A stretch of 64,000 nt of DNA from Tricharina praecox (Eukaryota). Positions 2,341-33,710 of the stretch are shown here, piece after piece; the stretch's first letter is position 1; the number at the start of each line of letters is the position of its first letter. The stretch covers positions 496,001 to 560,000 of the forward strand of contig NW_026250408.1 of the NCBI RefSeq assembly GCF_024521635.1. Reading direction: 5' to 3'. Under the pieces are notes generated by a model that did no database searches, was not told where the DNA came from, and saw only the letters and a program-made list of their open reading frames with translations. Position numbers and translations under genes: made by a program.

Positions 2341-3860
2341 GACACACGCACACGGGACACACACAAAGCTGCACACAAATCTCCACGCCATCTGCCCCCA
2401 CACCCTCAACATCCGCAGCTGCCCTTCCAAGCCATGACGACAAGCTCCGTACTCTACCGCGTCCGGCTTGTTGATTGGCCGGAACCATCCTCCGCCGCCT
2501 AGCTCTGAACCGGGGGGAGCCAGGGGGGTGGAAGATCTGAGCGCCCATCCACAGGCGTGCAACGATCTGGTCTATGCCTGACGGGGCTAGCGCGGCTCGC
2601 GTATCTCTCTCTCAGTTCTCTCTGGTGATGGTGGTGGGGAGGGGGGGGGGGCACACTTCCGCTTCCTTCCCTGGCCGCTTGCATCGCTGGTACTGACTGG
2701 TACATACGATACGGTAGTCGGTCGACTACTAGAGAGGAGCTAACTGCATATTGCTGGGGAACCGGCGGTCTCCTGTCGGTCGGTCGGTCTGGTCGGTCTG
2801 TAAGGGCGGTCTGTAAGGGCGACTCGCCCGTCGCCCGTCGACAGGGACATGCGAGATTCGAGACACCGGCTTGGGACTGCGAGGATCAGGGAGGATCAGG
2901 GAGGATCAGGAAGACGCCGTGGTCGTGAGGTGACGATGCGGTGCGGTGTTTTATTTTTCTCTTTCTCTGCCTCCCTCACCGCTTCCCACGGGTCCCTGCC
3001 CCCCGCAAATCAGGGTCATCGTCGCGCGGCCGTGGCAAACGTCGTTAGTAGAGCACTCTAAATATCTGTTCGGGCTGTGTCACTGGTTGGGTTGGGTTAC
3101 GGAGTGGGTTGGGTGGGGAGGTATGATAGGTAGGAGGTATGGTAGTATGGCAGGTATGATGCTAGGTATTTGGAATTCATCAGGATTCGGCATTACACCC
3201 TTGGTTGCTTGGGCGCGCTCGGAGTTCCGTGGGCTTCTCGGAGGTGGAGAGGATAGCAAGTGTTTGGACAGAGGATCTATGGAATTGTAGAGGCGGCAAG
3301 CGCTGGCACAGAGCATTTACAGTTCCATAGATGTAGCGAGCAATTGCACAGAGCCGTAGATGCAGTGAGCATTGCACAGAACCGCAGATGTCTCCATAAA
3401 GCAGCTGTAACTATTATCGATAGCACCTATCGCGATGCTGCCGGGCTTCCACGCCGCCCCTGCTGCGTCCGTCGGTGGATGAAATGAAAGCATGCGGCCC
3501 TACCATCGGCAAGCAGCCACCTATGCACACCACCACCACCACACCGTTTTCCGCATCTCCCGCCAATCTTCAAACCCCATGAAACTCGCCAAGGTCCACC
3601 CACACCTGCAGCCGAATCTGGCTGTCCGATCTCCGTAACTTAGACATTGCTCGTGGCATCGCGGCGCAGTCCGCCCCCCAACCCATCTCCCTTTCTGCAC
3701 TTCTCCCTTTCCTCACCTCCCCCCAGTTCCTCCCGCTCCACCGCCTGTCGAGCAACGTCAGAGCAGAGCCAGCGCGCCAGACTTGCCCACCAAGAGCCGG
3801 AAAAAAAGAAGAGCCCCCCCCCCCTGCCCAGCGACCTTCTCCATCATTCCCTCCAGACCA

Positions 3861-4661: not shown

Positions 4662-6046
4662 ATGCCACCCCAGAGAACGGCACATTCCAAGCCGGCTTCC
4701 AAGCCGGTCAAGTCTGAACGCACACACGAAGAGAATCAGGAACGGTATGTAGCACTTGTCTCCGTCTGCATGGGATCGGGTGGGATAGCTGATTGCCACT
4801 TCACAGAGCCTACATTGCTGCGTCCCGAAGAAGTGATAGAAGTCTCGAGGCGAGAATCGAATCTGCCCGCCGAGCCTCGGAGATCCACAAGAAAAGGACC
4901 GGCCGAGCTCTCCGAGTCACCGAGGCCGATGTCGTCAACGAGGAGATGTACGAGGAGGAGGACGACGACGTGACCACAGCCTACCGCAACCTGAGCGCGC
5001 TTATGGGCGGTGGACCCATCGATCGCCGTTTCGCCGCTTACTACCAACACCAGGTTTACATGAGGAATGCCGTGGACCGAGAACTGAACAACAGGATGGC
5101 TATGAGTCAGGCGAGTATGGGCATGGGCGTGAATATGGGAGTGGCTACCGGTTATTCCCCGCATCAGACCTTCCCCGGTGGATACGCTCTCCAGCAACAG
5201 CAGTATCCCTTCTTCAGACAGCCTCTACAGCAACAGTCCGCCTATCGCCAGCAGCCTTATGCTCCTCCCGCCGGTGGTAGCAGCCACAGCCATGGCAGGG
5301 CCATGTCTACGCACATTCCGCAGCAACAGCCGATGATGATAAGGGCAGCCCAGCCCGCCGAGATCAAACGGACATCAAACTCGCCCTCGCTCTCGCCGGA
5401 GACTCACGTCTCGCAAGAAGACCAGTTCGCTGCAAACATGCCTCACATCCAACAGATGCCAACGCCGTCCTCTTGTCGGCCCACGCCTTTGTACTCGAGC
5501 ATGCCGGCGTACCAGTCTCCGCCCCAGCCACCACCCTTGTCATCTCCCATGTCGAATGAGGAGGAACCCTACTCGAACTATCTGTTCTCGAACGAACTTC
5601 CCGCCGAATCCGCCAGGTTCTTTGCCGGAACAAGTGCGAACAGTCTCAACATTCCCGGAAACTTTGACCGGTTCGATAACGGCACCACGTACACCACCAG
5701 CAAAGGCTTCACCACGAGTCTGAGTCCCAATCAGCAGAGCGATCCCTTCGAGTCCAAGACCGAGGATGGCCTCGCGACCACCACCGGGGAGCTGAAGTGG
5801 CAGCCTAGCAGAGTCGACTCTCCATATCTCAACGTGGGCACCGCGAGCAACCCTAGCTTCTTGAACGACAATCAAAACCAGGAGGACGATCTCCTGAACT
5901 CGTTGTTCAGCGATGGGACGACGCTAGCGGGATCGGATGCGTTCGGAAAATTCGACTCGGCACCGATCGAACAGTACGCCGCCGATCAGGACGCGTGGGG
6001 CGAGTTTGTGAACCAGGACTGGATGCTCGAGTCGAGCGTCACGTGA
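4662..6046 (+). CDS. Conserved fungal uncharacterised protein with N-terminal RTHEENQERAYIAASRRSDRSLEARIESARRASEIHKKRTGR domain and Q/P/S-rich body; putative regulator
   Basis: Exon 4662-4744, intron 4745-4806 (GTATGT..GCTGAT..CAG), exon 4807-6046. Splicing joins NQE-R-AYIAASRR in frame. I recognise the motif from filamentous ascomycete hypothetical proteins. Confidence 0.88.
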
Positions 6047-8126
6047 ACCACGAAACCGGATCGTCTGTTCTTTTCTTTTCTTCCTTGTCTCATCATCGTG
6101 GTCTCGCGCCGTCTGCCTAGCCCCGCAACGCTTCTGAATACGATATTCACGGACACAGCAATAACCGCACTAGACATTCAAGATCTTCCAAAATTACGGA
6201 TATCTTGATTGTTGGCTTCTCTGGATAAAAGGCGTTCGGTGCATAAAGGGCTGGTATCCTTCCTGGTGCGAAAAGAATACATCGGCGTTAGTTTGTTTTC
6301 GGAATACATTTGTTATCCTATGGAGTTTGTCGTTCAGGACACTTGTTTTTCTTTTCTCTTTTTCTTTTCTTTTCACTCATGGTTATGATTCGGTTTAATT
6401 TTACGGGGGGGTTTTTTTTTCTTTTTTCTTTTCGGTATATTTGTTTCTTGATGGTTTTACTAGCTGCTGCTCTTTGGCTTCGGACGTATATAAGGTATCA
6501 ACCTTATACGTCCGGTTCGTCTCAATTTTTCCTTTTTTACCTTTTTTACCTTTTTTTTTTTTGCTGTTACTCGGTTTCTTGCCTAAGCGGTGAGGAGGTG
6601 TTGCAAGGGAAGGGAAACAGCTTTCGAATTGTCAGTTCTTATGATAAACTGCCGCATATGAGGATTAGCACAGTATGCATTGTACAATAGATACACAAAC
6701 TTCAAAGGTCTTTATGAGTGGCATACCTACTGCCTGGTAAAGCATTGCAAGTTTCGCAAGTTTTCCGTGGAGCGTTTTGGTGTCTTCCGTTTTTGAAATT
6801 CTGAAAGAAAGAATATTGCCCTGTCTGGGCGGTGAGGCGGAAATCTTGGCCCTCGGGTCTTGGGAGGGGGGCGGGGGTTAAGGTTAGGCTTTCCGTTGCC
6901 AGTTGACAACTTGCTATTGCGGAGTGAGTTTGTGTGGTAGCTTTGCGTGGTGACTTTGCGTGGTGGCGTGGGTTACAGTTGGGTTACGGTTAGGCGTAGT
7001 GAGCGGGTTTTTGGGTTTTATGGGGTTTTTTGGGCTTTGGGTTTTTGGGTTGGGGGCTCGGAGGGGGCTCGGGAGGAGACTCGGGAGGGAGACTCGGGAG
7101 GAGCACGGAGGGGCTCAGAGAGGGAGAGACTCGGAGAGATATTGGTATGACTATCTCGTGTACCTACGGATGGGGAGTACGGACGGGTAGTACAGACAGG
7201 GAGTTCTGGAGTTCTGGAAGCCTCTGGATCGACAGATACCGCACAACTACGGCACATGGCAGCGTACCTACCTGGGTATACAGATGCTCCATCTAGGTAG
7301 CCCGCAGACGGACGGTAGAGCACGGTAGGGCACGGCAGGAAGATGCTTTGAAGATGTTTTGAAGATGTTTTGAAGCTGGCTCGCCGTTATCCACACTGCC
7401 TAGTACTATAGTTACTCGGCTTCGGACGGGAAGTGACGGACGGGAAGTCACGGGCGTGACGGCCCACTATCACGGCCACGATCCTGAGGAGAGCTGAGGG
7501 GGCGGTGGGGAAGGTGGGGAAGGTGGGGAAGGTGGGGAAGGTTCGGTGCGCTTAACCATATACCTAATGCAATAGAGTGTGCAATAGAGTGTGCATTCCC
7601 CACAGGCCTGTCAGGCTCGTCAACGGGCAAACCCTCCCTCCCTCCCTCTCTCCCTCCGGAGTCTATCTGTCAGACCTGGATGGGGCCTACCAGACTCCTC
7701 GACGACTCTACGACGGCTCCAACAAGCACGCTACAGGACGACGGTGCCCTATCGATAAAACCCTTTCCTCCCCCACTTCTCCCCCGCACGACTGAGGGAG
7801 TGAGGAAGGATCCCCGGCGCGGAGCAACACCAACACCAACAGCGTCTCTACTAGAGTACCGGTATATTCCACACAGCTGGTGGTCGGTCGGTATCCAAGG
7901 CGAGTATGTACAACTGCCTATGCATGTGCCTACCAAGTATGAGGTATGCATGTATGAGGTATGTACATGCAACACACCCCAGGCCTGGCGGGCGGTTTCA
8001 GCACCCGGCTAACTATAGTACTACTATAGATATGGGCAACAGGTTACAGCTGTAGCCTGTAGCCTGTATGTAGCCTGTAGGGCTGAGCGATAGATGAGCG
8101 ATGCCTGAGTGACAAAGCATGATGTT

Positions 8127-8175
8127 CGGAGTCGGAGAGTCGGAGTCGGAGTCGGAGAGTCGGAGTCGGAGTCGG
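8127..8175. repeat. (GGAGTC)n hexamer tandem repeat with GA insertions
   Basis: cggagtcggagagtcggagtcggagtcggagagtcggagtcggagtcgg. Confidence 0.9.
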
Positions 8176-8594
8176 GTGGATATCTTCTCCTCCCCCGTCA
8201 GTGCTTTCGCGCTGACGTTTGGCATACATGTTGGGAACTTGGAGCTGGAAATTGCCCCGGTGTGATACGAGGATACCGCAGATGCGGCGGATACGGGGAT
8301 ACTTGGGTATGCCAGCTTGTCGATGACCCCTCACCCCCCCAACAGGCCGGACCAACAGTCTAGACCAAGCGCACGGAAATTGGGACGTCTCCAGCCATTG
8401 AAGCCAATCGTTAACACGACTGCATACATGCATGTATGCAACCCACCCCGGGAATGGGTTTCAGGACACGACCGTTGACCGTCGACCGGATGGCGGTGAG
8501 TGACCGGTGGTGAGCACGGTTGTTATGTGTGGAATAAACCCCCTCCCAACCCAGCGCTTCGCTAAGTCGACTCGTCTACTCCATACGTCCTCAT

Positions 8595-8618
8595 CCCCCC
8601 CCCCCCCCCCCCCCCCCC
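8595..8618. repeat. Poly-C homopolymer (C24)
   Basis: Read directly. A similar C17TC6 tract lies at 1603-1626. Confidence 0.95.
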
Positions 8619-11224
8619 AGCTGCTGATGATGCATGTATGCAATACATAGACTCACAGACTTCCCCAACATCCTTATCGGTATCACAGTCGATAACCTCC
8701 CGGTCCTGACTACACGGAATCACTCTACTGCACGCACGCACGCAAGGCCTGCCGGGTTCCAGACTTCCAGTGTTTCACCACCAAACAACCAACGACCAAA
8801 CCAAACAACATTAAACGCTTAATCGCTTAAACACACCCAGTGAGTGCCCACCTGTAATGCATGCATGCATATAATCTACTCTATAACTGGTAGTATAAAA
8901 GAAGAGAAGAGAAGAGAAGAGAAGCTTGGAAGTTGAAACGGTCGCGAGTGAGCTGAGCGCTAGTTACCTGGTCAGTCAGTCACTTGGTGCCTACTTTTAT
9001 GTACCTGACCTACCAGGTGTTCACCGAAGAAAGAAATAAAATGAATGAAGAAAAATGCAACGGTGCTTACTGAAACGTTATCCGGCCCGGTCACACCATG
9101 GCTGAAAGTTGAAACCGAGTGAGGCAGAGGGTGCGGATTAGAGTTGCCTATTCGGGCGGGGAATCCGAGAGGCGACGAGAGGTGACGAGAGGTGGCGAGT
9201 GATTTCCCGCCGGCCGGAAGGGAGGGAGAGAAAGGGAAAGGAATTCTGAAGCCTGAAGGGCGAGGCCGCTGAATGGTGTATGTACCCAGCCACTTGATGC
9301 TGCCGCATAGGCTGGTATGCAGGTACCTATTCGATCACTCGGAAACTTGCGAAACTTGCACTACTTGCGAAACTTGCGTGGGGCGTGGGGCCAGCCAGCG
9401 GGTCCGACACCGACACCGACACCGGTACCAGTGACTATGAACCTAACCACTCTACTATAGTAGGTAGCCGGCTGCCATCGTCTCTACCTGATTGTTCCGC
9501 ACGAGTTGGTAGATACCTACATTTTACGCCAGCAAGCATACCCCCCCACCAACCAACCAAGCATCAAGCATCCACCCACAAAGTGTGGGGAAAGTACCTA
9601 ATCTTACAAATCATTCCCGGCAGTCTGTTCCTCCGTTCCAGGTCCCCCCCCCCCACTCAAACGTGCGAGATTGGTAGTTATTGGTATTGATATTGGTAGC
9701 GGCACATGCCATGGATACCCCTACCCGCGAGGAAACAGTAACAGTTATCAGTGGTAGGTATTTGATATTGATATCTCACAAGCGAGTGATGGGGATGCGG
9801 GGCTGTGACAGTGCCGACTGTGTATGGCTGGGATAGTGCCGACTAGGTATGCGCAGACGTCTCTCTACCTGGAATATCTACTTATGCATATAACTCGATA
9901 CATAAAGTAGAGTGGCATAAGACACAAACATGCATCTCTGATCCCCCGGCTCGAGACGTTGCTTGGGAGCACACTCCCGTCTTCCCGGCTCCTGTTATTG
10001 ATATTGACATTGATATTGATACCCTGGATAACTCCGCTATGTAGTATGTATGCATCCAACATCCAGCCTCAGCGCAGCACGTGGTGCTGTCTCAGGCTCT
10101 CTACTCCACCCAAGCTCGCGATGCAAGTAGGTAGGTTGATGGGCGGGTGCATAATTCTTGGCTTTTATACGGTTTCAGGTCTGGGGGCGGTACCGTCTCG
10201 AGCTGAGGCCTGATGCATCTCGCTGCGGCCAATGGCGTGGCGGATTGTAGATGGGGGCGGGCGGGTTCGGTGGGGACGTCACGAATGCTCTGCCATCGGC
10301 ATAGACGGCGAGATCCCAAGCTGTTCTCTTCGAACACCCAATATCACCGCACGCACGCACGCACGCGGACAGACAGACGATTCCGTGAACTCGTAACGTC
10401 GTAAGTATTCCACTACATATAGCCACTTAAGTAGCCAGCTCGTACATATCCTACACTCCCTCGTCCCTCGTCCCGGCCATCCCCCTTGACAAAGTAAGGA
10501 CGGCCCCACCGATTATCCGCCACCTCCAGTTACGTCCCAATGCCCAATGCCCCCCGCCACCGTCCTCGTCCAATCAACCAACACTATAAAAACACCCCCC
10601 CTCCCCCCCCCCCAAGAAGAAGAGGAAGAAGAAGAAGAAGAAGCCCGCGGGACCAAGTGATCCGTTAGATGAAATAAGAAAAAGGGGAAAAAGAAGAAAG
10701 CCCCGGGGACCAAAGCGATCGCACGGGGTAAGAAGAGCCACAGGCACAGCCGGGCAGAAGAAAAGAAGAAAAAAACCCAAAGATCCAGCCATGGAATGAA
10801 GCAACAAATCAAAGAAACGTATAGTAGCGTCTAGCCAGCCGAGCGAAGCGAAGAAAGAAACCCCCCAAAGGAAAGAAAGCAAGAAAGAACAAAATACCCC
10901 CCCCCCCCACCCAACCAACTCCATTTCAGTGGCCTTCCTCTCATAGCGAGTACTCTGCAGCACGTACTTGGAGGGTCTCATCCCGTCGCTCCGAACACAA
11001 ACACATGCACCCATTTCATTCACCAATGATTCGAATCGTCGTGGAGAGAGAGAAGAAAAAATAGGAAGAAGAAAAAACACCCAGCCAGAGCGGGGGGAGG
11101 AGGCACGGTGGTGGTCCACATCCTTGGTCGGATTGGATTGGGCCGTGCACCCGAGCCCGCTCGATGCAAAACAAACAGACAGACAGACAGACGTAGGAAA
11201 CAGTTCGCGGTCCGCGGACACCAA

Positions 11225-11466
11225 CTAGTTGTTGCTGTAAGGGATCACCGCACCGCCGGCGCCAGACATGGACGGGACTCCGTCGTCGCCGAAGGTGATG
11301 ACTGCAGATCGAGCGGTTAGCACTGGAAGGAGAGGACGTGGCTGTCCATGGGACGGGAAGGAAGGGACTCACCCTGACGGGCGGCGAGCTTTCCGATGGG
11401 TGCGGCCATGGTCAAGCCAATGAACGCGACGGCGGCAACGAGGAGCGTGCTAAGCGTGAACTGCAT
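11225..11466 (-). CDS. Small secreted prepropeptide, 56 aa: MQFTLSTLLVAAVAFIGLTMAAPIGKLAARQVITFGDDGVPSMSGAGGAVIPYSNN
   Basis: ATG at 11466 after a CA-rich leader (CAACACAGCAAAT). Exon 11466-11373, intron 11372-11302 (GTGAGT..GCTAAC..CAG), exon 11301-11225 ending TAG. Classic signal peptide and C-ending codon bias. Confidence 0.88.
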
Positions 11467-12999
11467 ATTTGCTGTGTTGTGTTGTATTTGTTTTGTTCTG
11501 TTTTGTTTTTGCGTGGTTGGACGATGGAGACGATTCGGCGGATGGATGGATGGATGGATGAGTTGTTTTTTCAGCGGAGGAGGAAGGAGCCCAAAAAGTA
11601 CGTGATGTGATGGTTGCAGGCAAAAGATGGAGTGTATAAAAAGTCGAGCCGGTCGACAGGGTGCGTATTATGCGAAGAATGTAAAGAAACTACAAGTAGT
11701 CTATAGACGGACGGACGGAAGGGAAGAATGAGGATCGAGGAAGTGACCGATTGCTGGATGGTATTTTGGATGGGAGGGCAAGTTGGGAAGCACGAGAGAG
11801 GGGCGGTATATATACGGCTGTGTGGCAGGGCAGCAGTGATGATTTCCTTTCCATTCCGCACGGAAGACGTAGCAGAAGTTTCGAATGGAAGGGATCTGCG
11901 AGATCCGTGTCGGTGGCTGTTACAGCTGCAGCACCAAGTTCCAACCAACCAACACGACACAGCGAATGCGATGCACAGCAGACGGACGGAGCGGTGGTGG
12001 CTTGTGGCTGCTGCCTCACCATCGTCACCGACCAACACCTCTTTCTTCTCCAGGGGAGGAGCAGCACCGCCCCGCGCCGTATCGTATCGTATCGTATCGT
12101 ATCGGAATGGACCAGCAACATCGAAACGTCAGAGCTCTTCCCCCCCGCCGCGACCCAGCCCAACCCAACCCAGGCCAACCAGCCCGTGTCCAGTTTGGAA
12201 GTCCGACTCTTGACACATCTGTACGGTTTCAGTGCATACCTACCTGTCGCTGTCGGACCGGGGCGGCTACCTAGTTACTAGCAGGTAGGTAGGGCACCTG
12301 GATTATAAACGCGCCCTTGTTTTTTTTGTCATGGAACTCTTGCATCAGATTCGAAACCGAAGCGAGACAGAGCCTGAGGTTGATGAAGAACCTGGGCAGG
12401 CTTGGCTCGTATCCCCAGAGCCCGGGTTGGGCATGACAGGCGCTTCCGCAGTTGGCGAGGAGCGGGGTTGACTAGTACTTGCAAACTAGTTGGTTAGTTA
12501 GCAGCCGGCCAGCAAGGATGCTGGGGAACATCTTGATAACCGTAGTTAAAATCGTGCCTACCTCATGGATGATGATTCATTCGTGCGTACCGTACGATAG
12601 GTACTCTCAGATCAGAGCAGGACGACGCAGACAAAAGGAAGTCAAGAAATATGAGCCGCTTTTGGAATTTTTTCCTGCAACCCCTGGGGAGTCGTCTGGC
12701 TCATAGTATCGATTTCTCAAAACCAAAATGTTTCTTGGTGCCCCGAGCAATACAGGTAGAGTACTTGGTTAGCCGGAGCTTTGTCATGGGAATACCACAG
12801 TGTATCACTCGGCGACGGAGTATTCGGGCTGCTTACTCCCAACGAAGAAGCAAAGCTGAGGTGCTACGGACAAGTATCACGGTGGCGTGCAGTTATGTGT
12901 TTGTCATAAATTCTCAGGATCTATTCTCTATACTGAGCAGTCCCACCGAAAACAAGTGCGCGTTCTAGATCGTAACATTATAAACAGCGCTCGCGCCCC

Positions 13000-13935
<936 letters not shown>

Positions 13936-15779: not shown

Positions 15780-18667
15780 TCAAACCGCCACTGGGGGCAC
15801 ATCAATATCCATCTTCGCGAGCTCCTCCTCATCCGAGAAATCGTAATGACTCCCGACATCATCGCCGTCGCCATTGCCCATCTGCTCGGCATCTTTCCCA
15901 GTCACCTCCTCAACCCTGCCACCCACCGCGTTGCTCCGCTGGTGTTCCTCGAGCTCCGCCAGCGTCCACGTCGATATGCCGTCGCGCTCCTCCATGGGCT
16001 GGGCCATAGTTCTGAGAAACTTCTTGGCCGCTGCAACCGCCATATCCGTGGACAGGTTGACATCGCTCTCGTGAAGGGCCTGCGCGATCCATTTCGGAAG
16101 CTGTGTTCGCTTCCGGCCATAGCGCTTATCCGCGAGCACCATGATTCCGTAGTCATCTTTCCCGCGGAGGACACGGCCAAGGCACTGTGCGGCGTGGCGC
16201 ATCGCGTCGAACGAGAGGAAATCGCTCTCCCGGATCCGAAAGTTCTCGCGGAGGAATTCGAGGCGCGCTTTGAGGATTCGAGACTCGGTGTACTGGTATG
16301 GAACTCCTATGCAGAGCACAGTGCGTCCGTAGTGATGGTCGAAATCGATTCCCTCGCTCACCTTGCCGCGCGCGACGCAGAGCATTACTGCGCCGCGGCC
16401 ATTGCAGCAGGCGGTGCGGTAGGTTTCCAGAGCCAAACTGGTTTCCTGGCTGTCGGGAGTTTCCACTAGGAGGAGCTTGTATTTCCAAACTTCGTCGAGG
16501 ATCCCCATGCCTTGCCACATGCTGATTATGCTCTCCATGTAAAGGTAGGAGGGGAAGAAGACGACCATCCCGTCGGGGGTAATCTTGGAGAATTCGACAA
16601 GGAGACTGCCGTAGTTCCGTACGACACCGGGATCGTTGCGGATCTCGAATCGGCTGCTGACAGCTACTTGGTCGCTACCGCGGGTTACGATGAGGGGAAG
16701 GAAGGAACGTCGCGCTAGAGTCATGGTGTAGGACTCCATGACGACCGTCTCGAATTGCAACATCCGTGGGTACATATCCAGCGGGGAAATTGTCCCCGAG
16801 GTTATGACGACCGACGAGAAGCGGTCGAACACAGGCTTAATGGCAATAGAGGCATCCAGACAGGTAAAGTGTAGGACGGGATTAGGCACTTTGGCAGCTT
16901 CAGATTCGAATGGTTCCAGTATTAATAGGAACCCCTTCTCATATGTTGCCACTAAGGTTGCAAATGTTGCGACCTGTTGTAATGGTTGGTAGTCCTCTAT
17001 ATTGGCCAGCTCCAGAGTGCGTACGAGAGATGTGAGCCGTTCCGCACAGAACCTACGGACAGCCCGTCAATACTTTCCCACGGTGTAGAAGGAGTGGAAA
17101 CCAACCTCAGAGGCTTCTTCTCGATGAATGTCAAGTCTTTTAGATGCTTAAGGAATGATGCTGGAGTTTCCGAGATGACGTGCAGGACTTTCATTCGTGT
17201 CTGCAGACACTCAGCATGTTTGTATCCAACCGACATCCCAAGCATTTACATACCTTCAAATATTCGACAAACCGTTTCAAGAATGCCACAAAATGCTCAG
17301 CTCTCCGGATATTACCAGGCACTGCTTCTTTCAACAGATCATCAGGTAACACTATTACCTCGTCAGCTCATACGCTCCGTATCGTAATACGATAAACCCA
17401 CCAGGATTGGCCATGAACGAATCTTCAGATTCTCTCCTCTCATCTTCCTGCCGCAGGCCTTCAACAAGCTTCTGATATTCATTCTGTAGCTTCGCCGCAT
17501 CACTCGTTTTCATCTCCGCGATCTTACGTTCCAGATTGGTTGCTCCCCGAGAGGCTTTCCGTAGTGAGTCATCAGTCAGGTCTATGCTCAGCGACTCAAT
17601 GCACACGTTGTCGATATTGTGGGCTTCGTCGAATACCACGATACAGTCCTTGGAGAATTCCTTCGATACACGCTCGGCAATCTTAGGATCGAGTAGGTAA
17701 TGGTACGAGTAGATGATCACATCGCAGAACGGCATCTAGTACATTTCTGATGTGAGCATCGGTCGAACTCTTGTTGGATATTCAACTGGACATACCATTC
17801 TCCGTGCACTGAAGTACGGGCATTGTGTGTGCTTCTCGCAGTACTTCAACAGTCCATCGAACGTATATACACCCGGCGGGATGAGGTTACTCGGCTCCAG
17901 CAGGTCCAGATTCTGCCCCCACATCAGTCGCCCGTTCACCGTTATTACTGGGAGGCAGCTCACATCATGATAAACGCAAACCTCCACATCCTCGCCCTGC
18001 GCCTTCTTCTCCTTTACAAACCCCGCCGTAAGGCTTCTACATCTCGCATCGACCGCCTCGCCCCTCTTCTCCCTCTTCACCCCGGGGTGCAGACACAAAT
18101 TTTTCCTACTGGTTAAACCCAGCCCACGGAACTCCTCGACATATCCCAGCTCTTTGGCGCGGTACGCCATCAACGCCTTCAACTCTGCCAATGCCTTCTC
18201 GATCTCCGACATCGTGCGCGAGCAGTAGATGAGCTTTCGCGGCTCCGCGGACGCTTGCTGGTATGCCACAATCAATGAGAGAAGCGAGACGGTCTTGCCG
18301 GTGCCCGAAGGCATCTCGAGGATGCCATGGCCGCCCGCGTCGAGCGTTCCTGGAGCTTGTTAGTTCTTCTATTAAACTAGTCGTCGCGGTCGCTGGGGTG
18401 GTACGCTTGAGATCTGTCATGTAGCTTTGTTCCCGCAGGCCCGTTAGCTACCTCTAGCGCCCCGGTCGTCGTGGGTGTAAACATACGCATATTGTTCTAT
18501 CGATTGAGTCCGGAGTTAGCTATCAAGCTATCAGACACCACTGGGGAGTTCCGGAACATACCTGGATAGATCTTTGGATATGGGAAGAGAACTTCCAGAT
18601 CACTAGCACCAAGTTAAAAACTGACATCGCGAAGTTTGGAGGGGACATACCCAATCTTGAACCTCAT
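15780..18667 (-). CDS. RAD3: TFIIH DNA helicase subunit XPD/Rad3 (Rad15)
   Basis: 10 exons: 18667-18651, 18602-18562, 18496-18487, 18424-18405, 18349-17964, 17912-17796, 17735-17402, 17351-17254, 17200-17106, 17052-15780. Motifs [20 protein letters not shown], Fe-S cysteines (NLCLHP), [23 protein letters not shown] and QCLGRVLR. Confidence 0.97.
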
Positions 18668-26126: not shown

Positions 26127-29100
26127 CTATTCAAAAGACGTCGAAAAGCCGGTCAAATCCAGTTCTATCGGCGTAGGCTCTGGGGTGGTGGCGAAGCCGC
26201 GTTCGATGACGAATACGCCGTCTCGTTCGACGGCGGCATCCTTCTTTGCGGCTACCCACGAGAGCCGGTCTTGGCTGACTTTTTCGCGACGCTCAATCGC
26301 TGATTGGAGGGTTTCGATGTAGGTTGTGAATTTGATGATTTCGCGGAAGAGGTACGAGCTCTTCTTCTCCCAATTGGCCATGGTCCTGGCGCTGTTGGGA
26401 TGGCGTGGGGAGAACTATCAACTGGTCAGTATGGGAATTCGTGAAAGGGTGAGTGGATGGTGGGACTTACAGCTAGCTTCATGGCATGCTGGAGTTCGTT
26501 GTGTTTAGCTAATTCAGCCTCAATGTTCTCCACATAGTGCTTGAGCGCCTTAAGCTGGTCCCTTTCGGCGAGACTGGACGCCAGCATACTTTGAGTCGGG
26601 GGCGACCAGTCCTTGATGTTGATCTTGTCTCCGGGGAGTCTCGGACGCACTGCACCATGGTCCATACTGGAACGAATGCTCATCTGAAGACTTGCACGTC
26701 CATGAGCCCCACTTTCCTGATTATTCGAGGATGGCGGCGATGAACTAATCGTTTCGATACCAGCCAGGCACTCGCCCCAGCCGTACTCGACATTACTGAC
26801 ACCACCTGTCAGGGGTTCCTTCGACAGACGGGCAGACCAGTAATTGGCAGTTGTGACAAACTCGGTGACAATCTCGGCCGTCCCAACTTCGAAGAAATGG
26901 ACTGCACCGGATGGCAGCGAAAGCGCCCACACATTCGGCCTATCCTTCGAGTATCCCGGCGGCGGAAGAGCAGAAGCAAGAGTCTGGCGCAGAAGGAATG
27001 ATCCAATCGGCTCTGCATTCTCCGTCCAATTACCACCACCGACGACACCACCAGAGGCATGCGAGCCCTTCCCGCTCTTGCTAGGGAACTGGAAGAGGCG
27101 CATGTAGCCGCGTTGAATAACGGCAAAGCAGTCGGTCCATCCACGGTTCTTGGCCCGCTTATCAACCGACTCAAGGTGATGCTTATGCTTGAGCAATCCC
27201 TCCTTGGCCCATGGTGCTCCTTCCAACTCAAGTGCGTCATCCCCGTCGAGTATATCCACATCGTCATCCTCCCCGGCAGAAGTCATTGAAGCCCCTTCCT
27301 CCCTGATGATAGCGTTGTTGAGCGCACCGGCGAATCCTATTGATTGTTGATAGTCTCCAGAGTGCGCAAACGAGGATCCAAGGGAATCCACAGACATGGA
27401 AGTCTGGGTTTTGTCAAGCGTGTACTTACTCCAAGTGCTAGATGCCGAAGGGCTCCACATCGATCGGTCCTCGAGACTAGTCCTGCTCGATCCTGCGTGC
27501 GATGCATTGTACACTCTCTGGCGGGACCGGTTCTTTGACGACCACTTGGCGCCCAATTTGCTGCTGTCTCCACCTCTTTTCGATTGTTCGGACGGCGCTT
27601 TGCTGATAGTACTCGGTGATCGACGAAGCATGCCATTGTTCCCACCGAACACAGCCAATCCACCCGACTGAGACGACTCCATCCTCTCCTGCGCTCCATG
27701 TAGAGGCAAAGCGTTATTCTTGACGGAATGGTAAAAGTCCTTCAAGACGATCTCCAGCTGGGTTTCCCACAGCCGGAGTCCACCGCCTATCGGAGCATTG
27801 ACCAACGCAACAGCGCCGTCCAGGTCGAAGTCTGATTTTTCCGCATGGTCCTCCGGCAAGATCCTAGGGCTGAGGTTTCCGATGTTTCCAATCCGGCTCA
27901 AGCGCGAGCCCTTCGACTCCCGCCCGAAATCCAACGACCCTTTTGCCTTGTGTCCCCGGAGTTCTGGCGCAGCTAGGGGGAATGTGGCCGATGCGGATGC
28001 AAACAGCTGAGAGTCCCCATCGGTACCTCTCTGGAAAGATGTCTGGGAACGTGCTACCGAAGCACTTTGCGACTGTCTAAACTCCTCTTCGACGCTGGCT
28101 GTAGCCGCAGCTTCTTGGATACCACGTCGAATCGTAGCCATGGTATTCTTGATGAACTGACCGCGCGTCATCCTCTGCGAATTAGTCAACTCGGCGAGAT
28201 GAAGGTCAGTGTTCAACAATAGCAACGAGTAAAGAATCGTGTGCACAATGTCTGTAACTCATGTGTTAGATCAAGATATTTCAGATGCATTCCCAAGGGC
28301 TGTCTTACCTTCGCTCTTGAACCCATGGTTTGGGTTGCAAACACACCATCGATGCGCGAACGCCACGATGATTCTGTCGACCTGCTGGGTTTCTCCCTTG
28401 AGAATGAGTCTTCCACACAGTATCCTCATGGCGTGCAAAATGTTCACTCCCGACCAATCGAAGAGTCGCATATACGCTTTCAATATAATCGCCTTGCCCG
28501 CCTCACTGTTGAACCCGGTTAGTGATTTGATCCGACAACGTCGACTCTGCCGAGAGTCACTCACTTGTCGCCCAACCAAGCTGCCGCCCGTTCCTTTGCA
28601 ATGAAATCCTCGTCACCACCAAAAATCTTTTTCGCCATTTCGTTGTCCTCAGCCGACGGCTCGGGCAAGCCATCATCCAGTGCACTGTCCGTTTCTTCCT
28701 CGTGGCGCAGTGGTTCCGCCTCTTCACCGGGACCGTCTTTCTGTAGAGTCACGGTGGGCGTGCTGGGGCTTGGTCCTGATATCCAAGATCCTTCCTTCGG
28801 TCTCGGTGGCTCCAGGTTGATGGTATCCAATTCCAACTGATCGCCGCCCCTGCTGGTACGCGACGACGAATGCTTCTTCTTGGCATCCTCCTCGTTGTAC
28901 AGTCTTTCGAGCTCTTTCATGTCGACGATCGCGTTTTCCCTGGAGGCGGCTGATGTCTTCCGTGTCTGGCTCAGTGAAGCTGTTGAGGACTTCCGTACGG
29001 CGCTGAGGGATGTAACAGAAGACTCTCGCGCGCGTCCGAGAGAACTGTCCGAATCCTGTCGCTCTTTCCCTGATCCCAGGAACCCGGTAGTGCTGGACCT

Positions 29101-30750
29101 GGCATTGGTCAATATGCCGCGGCTCGGGGGCGTCGGTGGCCAGTTCATGTCCTTGTCATCCTCGTCCTTGTCCAAGAAAAAGGTGCGGCTGTTGAATGGG
29201 GTGTTTGGGGATGTTTGTGGTCGCTCTATGCCGCCTGTGGGCGATCTCGACGGCGCGCGGTGATCGGTGGTCACCGACATATCCTTTCCGCCACCCCACA
29301 TCTCCTTGTGGTACCTCTTCCCGCTGCTGTCTACGCTCAGGTGTGGTGCAATATCCCGATCCCTAGAGCTCTCACTAAAGAATGATGGGCGCCGAGGTGA
29401 AACAGGATCGGAGGAAGCAACCGTGCGGATCGTCGCATTACGTGCAAGGTAGGCTGTCTCGCGGTCTTCCATTGTGGATTCCAGTGTTCCAGGCCGGGGA
29501 GGCGCTCGGATATAGGGGTTCATGGCGGTGCGCAAAGACATGCCGGATGGGCTGGGCACGATTGCGTCGTCTTTTATGGCTGCGGGCGGAACATGGATGG
29601 GCGCGGGGACAGCTTGAGGGAGAGCTGGAACCGGCGGGGGTGCAGTGATGTCGGACAGCGACTTTTTCCGCCTCCTAAAGAAGGAAGCTTTCTTATGAAG
29701 CACTGGCTGTGATTGTTCGGGTGGGGGAGCTATCGGAGGATTCGGTGGCGGTGGATTCGGCGCACTGGGAGGGTAGGGGGGATTTGACACTATGCTGGTC
29801 TTGGAGCTGCTGTTACTTGTGCTCTGTGTGTGTGTTGAGTTAGAGCTTCCGCCGCCACCAAACACACGTCTGAAGAATCCGGGCCGCCCGCCCGACTTGG
29901 TAGAAGAACCCATTGCCGCTGCTGCTGCTACTGCTGTCGCTTGAGATGGGGGGTTGGCAAAGGCTGGGAGCGGCGGGAGTGTCGCGGGTTCAGGGGGCGT
30001 GTTGAATGGTTGATCTCTGCTTCTGCTCCTGTAGCTTTTGATGCTCTTGTTGGACGGTCGTCGCACAAGTCTCGGCGATCTCGGAGGAGAAGGTGTGCGG
30101 TTCCTAGTTCTTATGCTGGGCGCAGGTGCAGATTCAAAAGTTTCGTAACCGTTCGCATACCCATGTGATGAGCTTAGCCCTCCGCGTCCCCGCGAGCGCG
30201 TGTCTCTCTCGTAAGTAACTCCGAAACTGCCCTCGCCGTAGTCGTGTGCAGATTCCAACTGCCTAGGGGCAGAAGACGAAAACTGCGAGTCGTAGCCGGC
30301 ACTATTGGAACGTCCGCGCCGCGAATATACAGATTCGTCGTCGTCGACCTCGTCGATGTTGGAGAAGAAGGGTGAGGCGTCGAAGTTTCCAAAAGTGCCG
30401 TCGCCAATCTTGTCGAAGGAGAGAAGGAGGTTGTCTAGGAGTGAGTCTCGTACTCGGCCGCCGTTGCTCAATGAGAGATCGTGGGAATCACGTCTGCTGC
30501 TGTCGTGATTGTGGTGGTGATTGTGGTGGCTGTGGTGGTCGCTGTCCGGAACTTCCCCTGACTTTGGTAGATGGGACCTGTTGGAATTCGTGCTTCCGTA
30601 GCCCGACATCGATGATGTTAGATCCGTGACAGAAGAAGCTGTCGAAAGCGGCGACGGACCAGAAATTGACCTCTGGATAGGCCTGCGCCTCGTTTTGTCG
30701 GCGGTGTGGAATCGAGATGTCGAGGAGTCCGGCTCTAGAGGGGCCACCAT
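26127..30750 (-). CDS. Sec7-domain + PH-domain ARF guanine-nucleotide exchange factor (Yel1/Syt22/EFA6-like)
   Basis: Exons 30750-28565, 28505-28309, 28251-26471, 26414-26127. Sec7 motifs LKGETQQVDRI and YSLLLLNTDLH, PH region GAPWAKEGLLKHKH..NYWSARLSKEP, C-terminal MANWEKKSSYL. Start codon uncertain. Confidence 0.92.
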
Positions 30751-33710
30751 GGTCGAGGGGAGCCAACTTCTAATAAACACACTACCGGTGCTTAGTTCAA
30801 CGCTCGCGGACCCCAACTGGACTGGGAGTGTGTGTGGGTAGTGGATATGCGCCTCTCTTTCGAGGATGCCTTTCTAGCGTCTAGCGGGGAAGTTGCTGCA
30901 AATCGTAATTCGACAGGACAGGGAGAGGCGGTGGTTACCGATTGGCTGGAGAACTGGGTGGAGGGGGCACGGCAGGCGAGTTGTCTGCAGGTACATGTAC
31001 CTACGGGCTGGGCTGAGCTGAGTCTGTCCGCCCGAGCAAAAGATCCCCACGTTTTTTTCTTTCTTTCTTTTCCGCCTGGAGATGCAGGCAGCAGGCAGCA
31101 GCAGGCAGGTCAGGTCGGGTCGGATGAGTGTGGAATCTTTTCGTCTAATGTGCACGCAGGGCTGCTGAGACGAAGCTGAGCCGATGAAGCTAGACGTGCG
31201 GCATCAGTGTAGTCTCCGGTCCGGCACGGTTGGATGCCTGCGTACTGAAGTCAGTCCCTATGTACCGTAGGTACCGTGTGTAGGTATTCGAGGTCTCCAA
31301 TATACGCACACGCAGGTTGTCGGTGGAGAAGAATCTCCGGGGATCCGGAGCCAGAGCTTTGGTATGATGTGAGCAGTACCGTCTATACAGCTGCGATAGG
31401 TACCCAGGTCCAACAAACGAACGAGTGCGTGGGAAAAACAAAAGAATGTATGCGGAGAGAGCGAGGGGGTGGTGGGAATGGATGAATGATAGGCAGGCGT
31501 AGGTAGTGTGAGGTTACCCAGCCGGAGGAGACCACATGTATGCGAAGAGTTGGACAGAACAATCTGCACGTGTGTGAAACTTGGAGTAGCTTGACCAGAG
31601 AAGGTGCGTGCGATGCGGGTTTACATAAGTCCGTAGATGGCTATTGGGGAACGTGGGTGTGGATTAGTTGATCCCGAGGCATGCGTAGAAGGAAGGCACG
31701 AAGGTGAAGCGAGTAAGATATCATGCCTATATTGAGGGGCTGCGACGATTCAAAAACAATGGCGGCCATGCAGAAAAATTGCCTCGAGATGCGGTAAGTG
31801 AGAAGTACTCACGTATTCACTTCCACCTGTGTAGGTACATGTACTTGTGTATCTATGCATCGTGATCAATTTACGGGAAAACAGGCAGAATGTCTACCGC
31901 CTAATTGCGAGATCCGGAGGAACCATGATCAGCCTCAGGCCAGCCTTGGGCCTGAAGTCTTGACCGGGCGGGCTGCCCAACGCGCCGAGGAACTAAGCGG
32001 CCAACTGCGGTCTGGCCGAACGAACAATCCTCACTTTACTCGAGACGGAAACTTCAAGATTCACCATTGTTTCGGCCTTTCGTCCTTACTTCCCAACTCG
32101 TCTGTAGTCCATAATATCCCAATCACAGAGAAGATCTGCTCCTGAGGAATCTTAAATAAATACCTACTGGAAGCATCCATCCCTTCTCCCCTTAACTCAC
32201 CACCATCATCATCATCCCGATCCTCTGATTGAAGCAGATACGGAAGACTTTGCGGTTGAGTAGATACACACATGGCAAAACGTTAGATACTCCCCATCAC
32301 CAACCTTCCCAGAGACACGGTAACTTTTGCCACGCCACGCCGGTACCGAGATCATATGTATGTGCCGCATGTACGTACGGGAACCGGACGAACATCGACA
32401 TCTGTCAACATTTTCCCGTTAATTGGATGTCTGTGTGAAACCGAGCTGGAAGGACTTGCACCATGGGCAACTATGGCTCCATGTAGATAGCATCATAACG
32501 TCGGTAGGTAGGTCTCCCCCTGGAAATGCGGGGGTGAACCATGTCGTCAAAGGTTCTCCGGTGCCACGTCCGCTGGCTGCTGCTGCTGCTGCTACTGCCG
32601 GTGGCGGGACTGCTACAGTACCGAGAGTGCATTCTTTTGACTGCGAGACTTGAGGGCTGTCACTGGATTCTTGTGAAGATATTGGGCTTTCCGTCTGTGG
32701 ATACATAGAAAAAGAAGAGGAAAAGGTACATAGCGTACCTACAGTACAATATAATTCCCAGGAGAGTGAACCAGGGCGCTGGTTCCGAGCACAATGGGAT
32801 GGATGTTCACTACCGTATCATACGCGCGCACCCAACATACTTGGGTATCATCAGGTGTCCACTCATGAATCGTCATCTCCGACTCGGCGTTTGACGCTGA
32901 TGCCTAAGTATAGGTACTTTCGTGCGGTATCTTTCTCACGAGTGCGGCTTTTGTTTGTCTGTTCTAGCTCTCGATGCTTTTTAATCGCGCTTTCAACTGT
33001 AGGTAGCTGTGCATGATCGCATTGTGCAGCTGAGCCTGCGGTTGGAGAGATCTATGTTGGCCTTCTGGTCATGCTCATTGGCTGGAGATATGTACATAAC
33101 TGCACCCCCCGGGGAACGGAGGTGAATTTATGGTATCGCGGAAGTCGGGGCTGATCTGCAGGGGCGCTCGCGGAGGTCAAAGGGCTCCCGTTTCCAGCAT
33201 GAGGTCCGTCTTAGCCAGGCACGCGGAGCGGGAGCGGCGGCGGCACTTTAGTGGCCGTACCCAGGGACGATCCTACATACAACAGAAGACATCGTGGCCG
33301 ACGCGTGGGAGATGCAGTTCTCGTTCGCATCACCTATTGCATAACACAGCAACTCATTCGCATCACTACATAGAAGTAAGTCGCATAACACATCTAACAT
33401 CAGCCTGCCGTTCAATTCTCGGAAATTGTACTCACCTGCCGGTGAAAGGCCGTAACCATGGCACTTACTCAAGTCTTACATACTATTAGGCGAGTGCAAC
33501 CTGGCCTCATCGAGTGACATTCCATGTCCCACGTGACCACTCGTCGGAGGCTTGTATTGCCGTCGAAGGCCGTCAACCTTGAACGTCATTGAGAGCCACC
33601 CCCACGAACGAATCGCAACGTGCCCAAGTAACAAGCGCATCGAACCCTCGAGATACCATTCAAAGACTACCGCTTGCTGCCTAGATTCGTACCCGCGTCG
33701 ACACTTCGAA

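Follow-up and report, generated by a model that had tools for sequence, protein, structure and literature searches.

The peptide gene and its transcript

The window analysed here, a stretch of 64,000 nucleotides from Tricharina praecox (contig NW_026250408.1, positions 496,001 to 560,000), carries on its minus strand a small two-exon gene for a putative secreted peptide, referred to below as the peptide gene. Its messenger RNA (mRNA) contains a conserved element in the 3′ untranslated region (UTR), which is predicted to pair with the 5′ leader. Exon 1 (11466–11373, 94 nt) encodes a signal peptide (codons 1–21, delimited by eye), a nine-residue pro-piece (codons 22–30) and Gln31. A phase 1 intron of 71 nt (11372–11302), with canonical GTGAGT donor, GCTAAC branch and CAG acceptor signals, separates it from exon 2 (11301–11225), which encodes the conserved mature peptide and ends in a TAG stop. 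The spliced product comprises 56 codons, with a third-position GC content (GC3) of 0.82, and when read unspliced the frame ends after 50 residues. The same layout is found in two homologues, here numbered P0003 and P0004. The former equals the spliced product of a 10-kb metagenome locus of a fungus (L001), whose intron is 50 nt long and lies at the same codon position and in the same phase.

Five public sequencing runs were listed, and four of them (X1–X4) were compared with the window; that X1 and X2 are RNA is the search tool's guess. Contigs of X1 and X2, which belong to two different studies, skip exactly the 71-nt intron with matching intron ends (two of the four runs compared), and those of X3 and X4 hold leader pieces only. 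In 17 of 18 records the X1 and X2 contigs agree with the window at 99% or more. The initial annotation had proposed a 56-residue spliced gene on the minus strand with a perfect 71-nt intron and a TAG stop, and had set reads across the 11373/11301 junction as a check; the structure is confirmed both in the sequence and in the X1 and X2 contigs, which cross that junction. The gene is transcribed and spliced, and that it is real we regard as practically certain. The 38.4-Mb genome has a single copy of it. When the window was scanned with a pattern for small two-exon open reading frames (ORFs) that start with a signal peptide, one match resulted, and 30 shuffled windows gave none; this is weak support, as the criteria were tuned to this gene.

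Taken together, the contigs span approximately 11820 to 10390. The leader (11467–11790, about 0.3 kb, upper end approximate) is covered by contigs that extend to 11822 (X1), 11771 (X4) and 11695 (X2), and no upstream ATG occurs in the 344-nt leader of the window or the 251-nt leader of L001. A TATA-like box at 11806–11815 agrees at 10 of 10 bases with L001 4751–4760. The 3′ UTR (10386–11224, about 0.84 kb, lower end approximate) is covered by contigs with breaks at simple repeats, and one contig of X2 has a loose end of eight T (poly-T) at 10386. The depth of the spliced contigs was 416 and 2,324, compared with 2–8 upstream, a coarse comparison since the tool calls depth a poor measure of expression.

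A phmmer search of 1.84 billion representative proteins returned a single match, P0003 (56 residues, E 9.6e-6). When P0003 was included in the search, three of 14 candidates passed: P0003 itself, P0005, which is an unspliced read-through of the L001 gene, and P0004 (E 1.5e-17), a 57-residue hypothetical protein of Pyronema domesticum/P. omphalodes. P0003 and P0004 thus supply the homologues with a conserved core on which the initial annotation had staked its proposal. A search among longer proteins yielded one match in 7,999, a 157-residue T. praecox model (NCBI) whose sequence the window yields in four blocks. This model uses the true intron and then makes two jumps (11248–11099 and 11053–10856) into a 3′ UTR frame, by which the last seven residues are replaced by 108 residues read from the 3′ UTR. 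Neither jump has GT-AG ends and the contigs run without a gap from 11301 to 10931 and from 11301 to 10919, so we reject the model as very probably wrong. The gene, which had been described as hidden, was therefore already in the databases, as the Pyronema hypothetical protein and as the mis-extended Tricharina model; the latter shows how tiny peptide genes can be lost in annotation.

Relatives were found in Tricharina, Pyronema and one metagenome fungus, and none outside these, with a search reach too limited to claim absence. A word-index search with exon 2 and the intron frame gave no candidate, but this search is leaky, since P0003 shares six five-residue words with the query. Two ESM Atlas queries gave nothing at >=0.9 and one Ascomycota cluster at 0.77, below the tool's lead level. 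The initial annotation had likened the core to a motif of uncharacterised tiny ascomycete proteins; such a wide occurrence was not confirmed, matches within the limited reach of these searches being confined to the three sources named and hence to the Pezizales. Pfam gave no family for the two exon pieces, P0003 or P0004, and the PDB sequences gave no match at E <= 10, so that across Pfam, PDB and Rfam no assignment to a characterised family was found, in keeping with the earlier proposal. In the open literature searched, which leaves subscription journals mostly outside its coverage, no paper contained the peptide motifs or accession numbers, and topic searches by title and abstract start returned none on the family. 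No 57-residue secreted gene appears in the 17 rows around AMMECR1, rad15 and UBP2 of a Pyronema expression table (10,655 of 13,369 genes), although the table probably contains the peptide gene. We conclude that this is an uncharacterised secreted-peptide gene family of Pyronemataceae-type fungi.

In all three species the hydrophobic signal ends before Ala-Pro, the pro-piece has exactly nine residues ending in Ala-Arg, and Gln follows (AR|Q). Judged without SignalP, each signal peptide has a best 12-residue hydropathy of 2.6–2.9 and small residues at −3/−1, and this segment is a helix in the AlphaFold model. The mature parts, of 26, 28 and 30 residues, are acidic (isoelectric point about 4.1–4.2) and Gly-rich, and in the three species they are free of Cys, as the initial annotation had stated, and of dibasic pairs, sequons and CaaX motifs. 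Eighteen of the first 25 mature positions are invariant, with the pattern Q-x3-FGDDG-x-PSMSGAGG-x3-PYSN, and identity is 18–20/25 in the mature part against 4–6/9 in the pro-piece. Over 22 codons of exon 2 compared with L001, eight are the same, ten differ synonymously and four are changed. As judged from these codons and residues, selection is shown to maintain the 25-residue mature part. The prepropeptide predicted earlier is thus real, spliced and conserved, with its mature part far better kept than the signal and pro parts, and very likely it gives rise to a secreted, processed peptide. The AlphaFold model (four-row alignment) has a mean predicted local distance difference test score (pLDDT) of 61.6 and a predicted template modelling score (pTM) of 0.25; the mature part, with pLDDT 43–61, shows no fold. 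With no fold, domain or solved relative to account for them, the conserved residues most plausibly form a binding face.

These properties also bear on two other kinds of product. A bulk secreted product without a signal, such as a component of the wall or matrix, a surface-active peptide or one that binds metal through Asp-Asp and Met, would be in line with the contig depth (coarse as it is), the GC3 value and the acidity, and two Gly-rich turns, read by eye, could permit strand stacking. We consider it rather unlikely: repeats, an anchor, Cys, a glycosylation sequon and an ordered model are all lacking, and near-invariance at 18 of 25 positions would exceed what a bulk role usually needs. A peptide aimed at other organisms, in antimicrobial action, competition or contact with plants, would suit a small secreted product of soil fungi, and leader pieces do occur in two soil metatranscriptome runs (both examined; three listed). 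An acidic, Cys-free, single-copy and slowly changing peptide differs from defence peptides and effectors of the typical kind, which are cationic or carry disulfide bonds, and this explanation appears improbable.

Conserved 3′ UTR element and its predicted pairing with the leader

The most conserved part of the transcript is non-coding. The element at 10976–10923 on the minus strand, 249 nt past the stop, is identical to L001 5523–5577 in 52 of 55 columns (95%), compared with 45% and 48% in the flanking UTR (the shuffle level) and 57% and 69% in the exons. In local alignment it scores 100, where the best shuffle reached 33, and it contains the longest stretch of exact identity (30 nt) that the 10 kb of L001 share with the window. 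The element is single-copy in the genome; the pattern of its second half, with two mismatches allowed, occurs at seven places compared with three for a control. A second, weaker and colinear 3′ UTR block (window 11132–11111, minus strand; L001 5425–5448) scores 27, which is below the shuffle maximum of 33.

Several ordinary identities for the element were rejected. A coding reading is broken by a frame-breaking indel and lacks a shared start. A small nucleolar RNA-like guide for ribosomal RNA (rRNA) would rest on 10 nt of complementarity to the organism's rRNA, which 113 of 300 random windows equalled. A stand-alone hairpin is not indicated either, as the isolated fold is unremarkable (z −0.2 and +0.7). 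Rfam searches in both species at E <= 10 gave four weak matches each, far below the gathering score and none on the element, although a split structure would escape such a search. No transfer RNA or transfer-messenger RNA was found in the window, the element was found in no viral contig, and its motifs gave unrelated matches only in the open literature searched.

The element is predicted to pair with islands in the leader through four helices, H1–H4, which recur in both species in unconstrained folds of the whole transcript, unspliced and spliced. H1 joins leader positions 11737–11750 to 10940–10926 (p 0.91–0.93 in the window and 0.53 in L001; absent from a longer L001 fold). H2 joins 11615–11622 to 10959–10951, with eight pairs common to L001 (p 0.73–0.94). 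H3 (11604–11596 with 10961–10969) and H4 (11592–11590 with 10973–10975) together occupy leader positions 11590–11604 and are separated by a 3×3 loop, with seven pairs as in L001 (p 0.87–1.00). Across both species p for H2–H4 is 0.73–1.0. Between the arms of H1 and H2 lies a conserved 5-bp leader hairpin (11643–11657), predicted in an isolated fold of the window and in the L001 mRNA fold (p 0.56), with 14 of 15 bases as in L001 4868–4882. Leader arms and 3′ element occur together on single contigs, namely X1 contig 3 (11822–10931) and X2 contig 8 (11695–10919).

Co-folding placed 23 pairs in one register in both species; when the element was shuffled with its dinucleotides kept, 2 of 1,892 versions did as well. 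For the first 30 nt of the element one of 3,597 shuffles matched both energies, and by a looser pair count the figure was one in 83. Duplex folding chose the orthologous leader block in both species (3/200 and 6/200 leader shuffles were as good), and the diverged inner arms beside the core pair better than block shuffles (5/200 and 3/200, the region having been chosen afterwards). In our view the pairing is probably real in the cell, as far as folding models can indicate, and a conserved 5′–3′ UTR duplex, which was unexpected, is moderately supported. The element and its predicted pairing with the leader were missed by the initial annotation and are new here; novelty in print is not established, no search having been aimed at fungal 5′–3′ UTR pairing.

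The greater conservation of the element than of the exons, together with four helices and a conserved hairpin, could also suggest that the RNA is the main product: leader and element would be the two parts of a split structured RNA, and the short secreted ORF would mainly serve to carry it to the endoplasmic reticulum (ER) or report its state. The peptide itself is under clear purifying selection, no Rfam match in either species (E <= 10) comes near the gathering score and rRNA complementarity is at chance. Such an RNA-led function is accordingly hard to favour, and we rate it as quite improbable.

Genomic surroundings

The initial annotation had described the flanks of the gene as free of other genes. 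Upstream, 1.53 kb indeed separate the AMMECR1 stop (13000) from the ATG, but low-depth RNA contigs lie within this interval; downstream, there are 5.2 kb to the stop of a convergent gene (6046), but about 0.84 kb of this is the gene's own 3′ UTR. The low-depth contigs (depth 2–8, X1 and X2) lie at 11909–12500, between AMMECR1 and the peptide gene, and may represent read-through, a non-coding transcript or DNA. The 4.3 kb at 6046–10386 hold no recognisable gene and many short tandem repeats, with no L001 alignment above shuffles; Pfam, searched at the curated cut-off, gave nothing for the two ORFs tested in this interval.

A conserved fungal gene without a Pfam match stands beside the peptide gene in both species (window 4662–6046, plus strand; L001 9292–10218, plus strand). 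Its first 99 codons compared with L001 comprise 49 that are the same, 37 synonymous and 13 changed, and the two copies align in a block of 71% identity. It is convergent with the peptide gene in the window and in tandem with it in L001, and therefore one of the two has been inverted locally. A 74-nt non-coding block upstream of this neighbour (window 2533–2606, plus strand; L001 8032–8105) scores 38 against 25–32 in eight shuffles and is possibly regulatory. At L001 428–1454, upstream of the homologous gene, short chitin-synthase-like pieces were seen by eye, which could be parts of a gene with introns or a decayed copy.

On the other side, AMMECR1 (13000–13878, minus strand) is an ordinary neighbour, as is the XPD/Rad3 helicase gene (15780–18359, minus strand). 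Further along, genes for Spt7 (from 21249 onward, plus strand) and a Sec7-domain protein (26426–30873, minus strand) were recognised by eye. In Pyronema, rad15 and spt7 are adjacent and AMMECR1 is elsewhere.

Interpretation and comparison with known systems

The interpretation that we tentatively prefer, with a confidence somewhat short of even, is that this single-copy gene of pyronemataceous cup fungi encodes a secreted peptide used in signalling, and that its mRNA carries an RNA-level control of its own. The signal peptide would take the product into the ER, and a protease of the Golgi or the cell surface (Kex2 or a yapsin) would cut after the single Arg, releasing an acidic, Gly-rich, unfolded peptide of 26–30 residues (about 2.6–2.9 kDa), possibly with an N-terminal pyroglutamate; for the window species the peptide starting at Gln31 would weigh about 2.55 kDa when unmodified. 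In the mRNA, the 3′ element and the leader islands are predicted to pair in their four short helices and so to close the message around the ORF. The clamp arms, 120–280 nt before the start codon, would lie on the path of scanning ribosomes and may gate translation, or protect the message and set its lifetime. Like Qsp1 of Cryptococcus, the peptide might act on the fungus's own cells, in density, growth or development, either via a receptor or once imported. A small, single-copy peptide that has an invariant surface but neither a fold nor an anchor is best read as a candidate ligand, recognised by a receptor or transporter of the fungus itself; a signalling role as such we hold with the same reserve, at slightly below an even chance.

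A number of points weigh against this interpretation. It is built on anatomy and prediction, and contigs of such depth would suit a bulk product no less than a signal. The cleavage site is a single Arg in all three species and none of the three proteins has a dibasic pair, and a Gln first exposed in the Golgi may escape an ER glutaminyl cyclase. The complementarity between element and leader was first noticed by eye and the tests were made afterwards. With two sequences only, 22 of the 23 shared pairs consist of unchanged letters and one is a one-sided change from G-U to A-U, so there is no two-sided covariation. By raw energy, 42/135 and 33/135 other 30-mers of the 3′ UTR pair with the leader as strongly, and the whole leader against the whole 3′ UTR gives z of −1.6 and −1.0, compared with −1.0 to +1.4 for 12 rough control ORFs. 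Block shuffles were not significant for the whole inner region (28/100 and 6/100) or the outer arms (55/300 and 108/300), nor was the L001 core by duplex energy (18–26/200); among eight such tests by region, a level of about 3% or better was reached only by the two arms beside the core and by the core of the window. H1 is the least secure helix and may partly precede the start site; its leader block also agrees with an initiator consensus, which may account for its conservation.

That so many 30-mers of the tail pair strongly with the leader follows from composition, the leader being C/A-rich and the tail G/U-rich, and this bears directly on a narrower explanation of the RNA part. The 3′ element could act alone, as a protein-binding, cleavage or splice-signal-like site, with the pairing a by-product of composition. 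In the context of the transcript, an element that has been shuffled still finds about 20 nt of pairing with the leader, and the element contains a donor-like GTACGT and a CUGCAG word and has the unremarkable isolated fold described above. No contig is spliced at the element, and the nested order of complementarity among the conserved leader islands (2/1,892) would be left unexplained; we regard this explanation as somewhat unlikely.

As regards processing, KEX2 sites are generally KR, RR or KK (PMC6339444), yapsins are monobasic (PMC6624476) and glutaminyl cyclases are ER-localised (PMC5241404). Cleavage after a single Arg has been seen in yeast expression, and peptides with pyroglutamate from Gln, released at KEX2 sites, have been detected in fungi (both in PMC9769878). 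With a site that is not dibasic, kexin cleavage and pyroglutamate formation would be plausible for the candidate peptide.

Beyond the mating pheromones, filamentous fungi have, to our knowledge, few known secreted peptides with a signalling role. The peptide gene offers a short, synthesisable signal candidate with an invariant core, in culturable fungi, and its mRNA a concrete case for conserved 5′–3′ UTR pairing in a eukaryotic cellular message. Long-range duplex switches between a 5′ leader and a 3′ UTR are, as far as we know, known so far mainly from bacteria and RNA viruses. A bolder proposal, which we consider unlikely, is that the product would be a peptide hormone of filamentous ascomycetes, single-core, non-repeat and Cys-free, invisible to screens for KEX2-processed repeat proteins (KEPs) and for pheromones, switched by a leader–3′ UTR duplex and possibly recognised by an orphan receptor in cup fungi as its ligand.

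A mating role would fit a gap in Pyronema, where even pheromone precursors have not been found: P. confluens has Ste2, Ste3 and the processing enzymes but no precursor (PMC3778014). The missing peptide pheromone, ligand of the Ste2-type receptor of the Pyronemataceae, might then be the product described here, and the window's genome has one Ste2. The features against this are the absence of repeats, dibasic sites, a Cys pair, Trp and STE13 dipeptides, and a peptide longer and more conserved than such pheromones usually are; it appears very improbable. When the peptide was modelled in complex with this Ste2 (the receptor entered as two exon pieces, without alignments), the score was 0.05 against a mark of 0.34, which speaks neither for nor against binding. 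The Ste2 gene lies at L009 1456–2626, and an intron appears to precede its last membrane helix.

Precursors of the a-type pheromones are defined by a C-terminal CaaX motif and have no signal peptide. Such a precursor can be rejected here, as the three C-termini lack Cys and a signal peptide is present. Neurospora mfa-1, which is reportedly a tiny, abundant peptide gene whose 3′ non-coding region is conserved, differs in the same respect: it encodes a CaaX lipopeptide precursor without a signal peptide, whereas the peptide gene has a signal peptide and no CaaX. According to PMC6339444, alpha-type precursors have a repeated peptide, a Cys pair, Trp and STE13 dipeptides after the KEX2 site; the three proteins have no Cys, Trp or repeats, and a canonical precursor of this class is likewise rejected. 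The likeness to alpha-pheromones and KEP proteins, as described in PMC6339444 and PMC9769878, lies in a signal peptide and a short peptide released after a basic residue, with Gln-starting products able to become pyroglutamate. The peptide gene has a single core in each of the three proteins, without internal repeats, and no KR, RR or KK site, and so, despite the signal peptide, does not belong among the KEP proteins; its motifs are absent from the four supplement files of PMC6339444 searched. Having neither repeats nor a dibasic site, the gene would be missed by KEP screens.

The closest working model is Qsp1 of Cryptococcus neoformans, likewise one small gene for a secreted pro-peptide yielding one short mature peptide; its 11-residue product is matured extracellularly by Pqp1 and imported by Opt1 (PMC7537855). 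Qsp1 is from a basidiomycete, however, none of the searches returned its sequence, and the likeness is one of layout only.

For the RNA, a eukaryotic precedent of 5′–3′ UTR pairing is said to exist in human p53 mRNA. As is predicted here, the icaR mRNA of Staphylococcus aureus (PMC3868564) and the hbs mRNA of Bacillus subtilis (PMC5737220) have complementary stretches in their two UTRs; the pairing encloses the ORF and could govern translation or decay. The RNAs of barley yellow dwarf virus (BYDV) and dengue virus are likewise closed by 5′–3′ pairing (as cited in PMC3868564). The predicted duplex of the peptide gene differs from these in belonging to a capped, spliced fungal nuclear mRNA, and its four interrupted helices would lie 120–280 nt before the start codon instead of over it.
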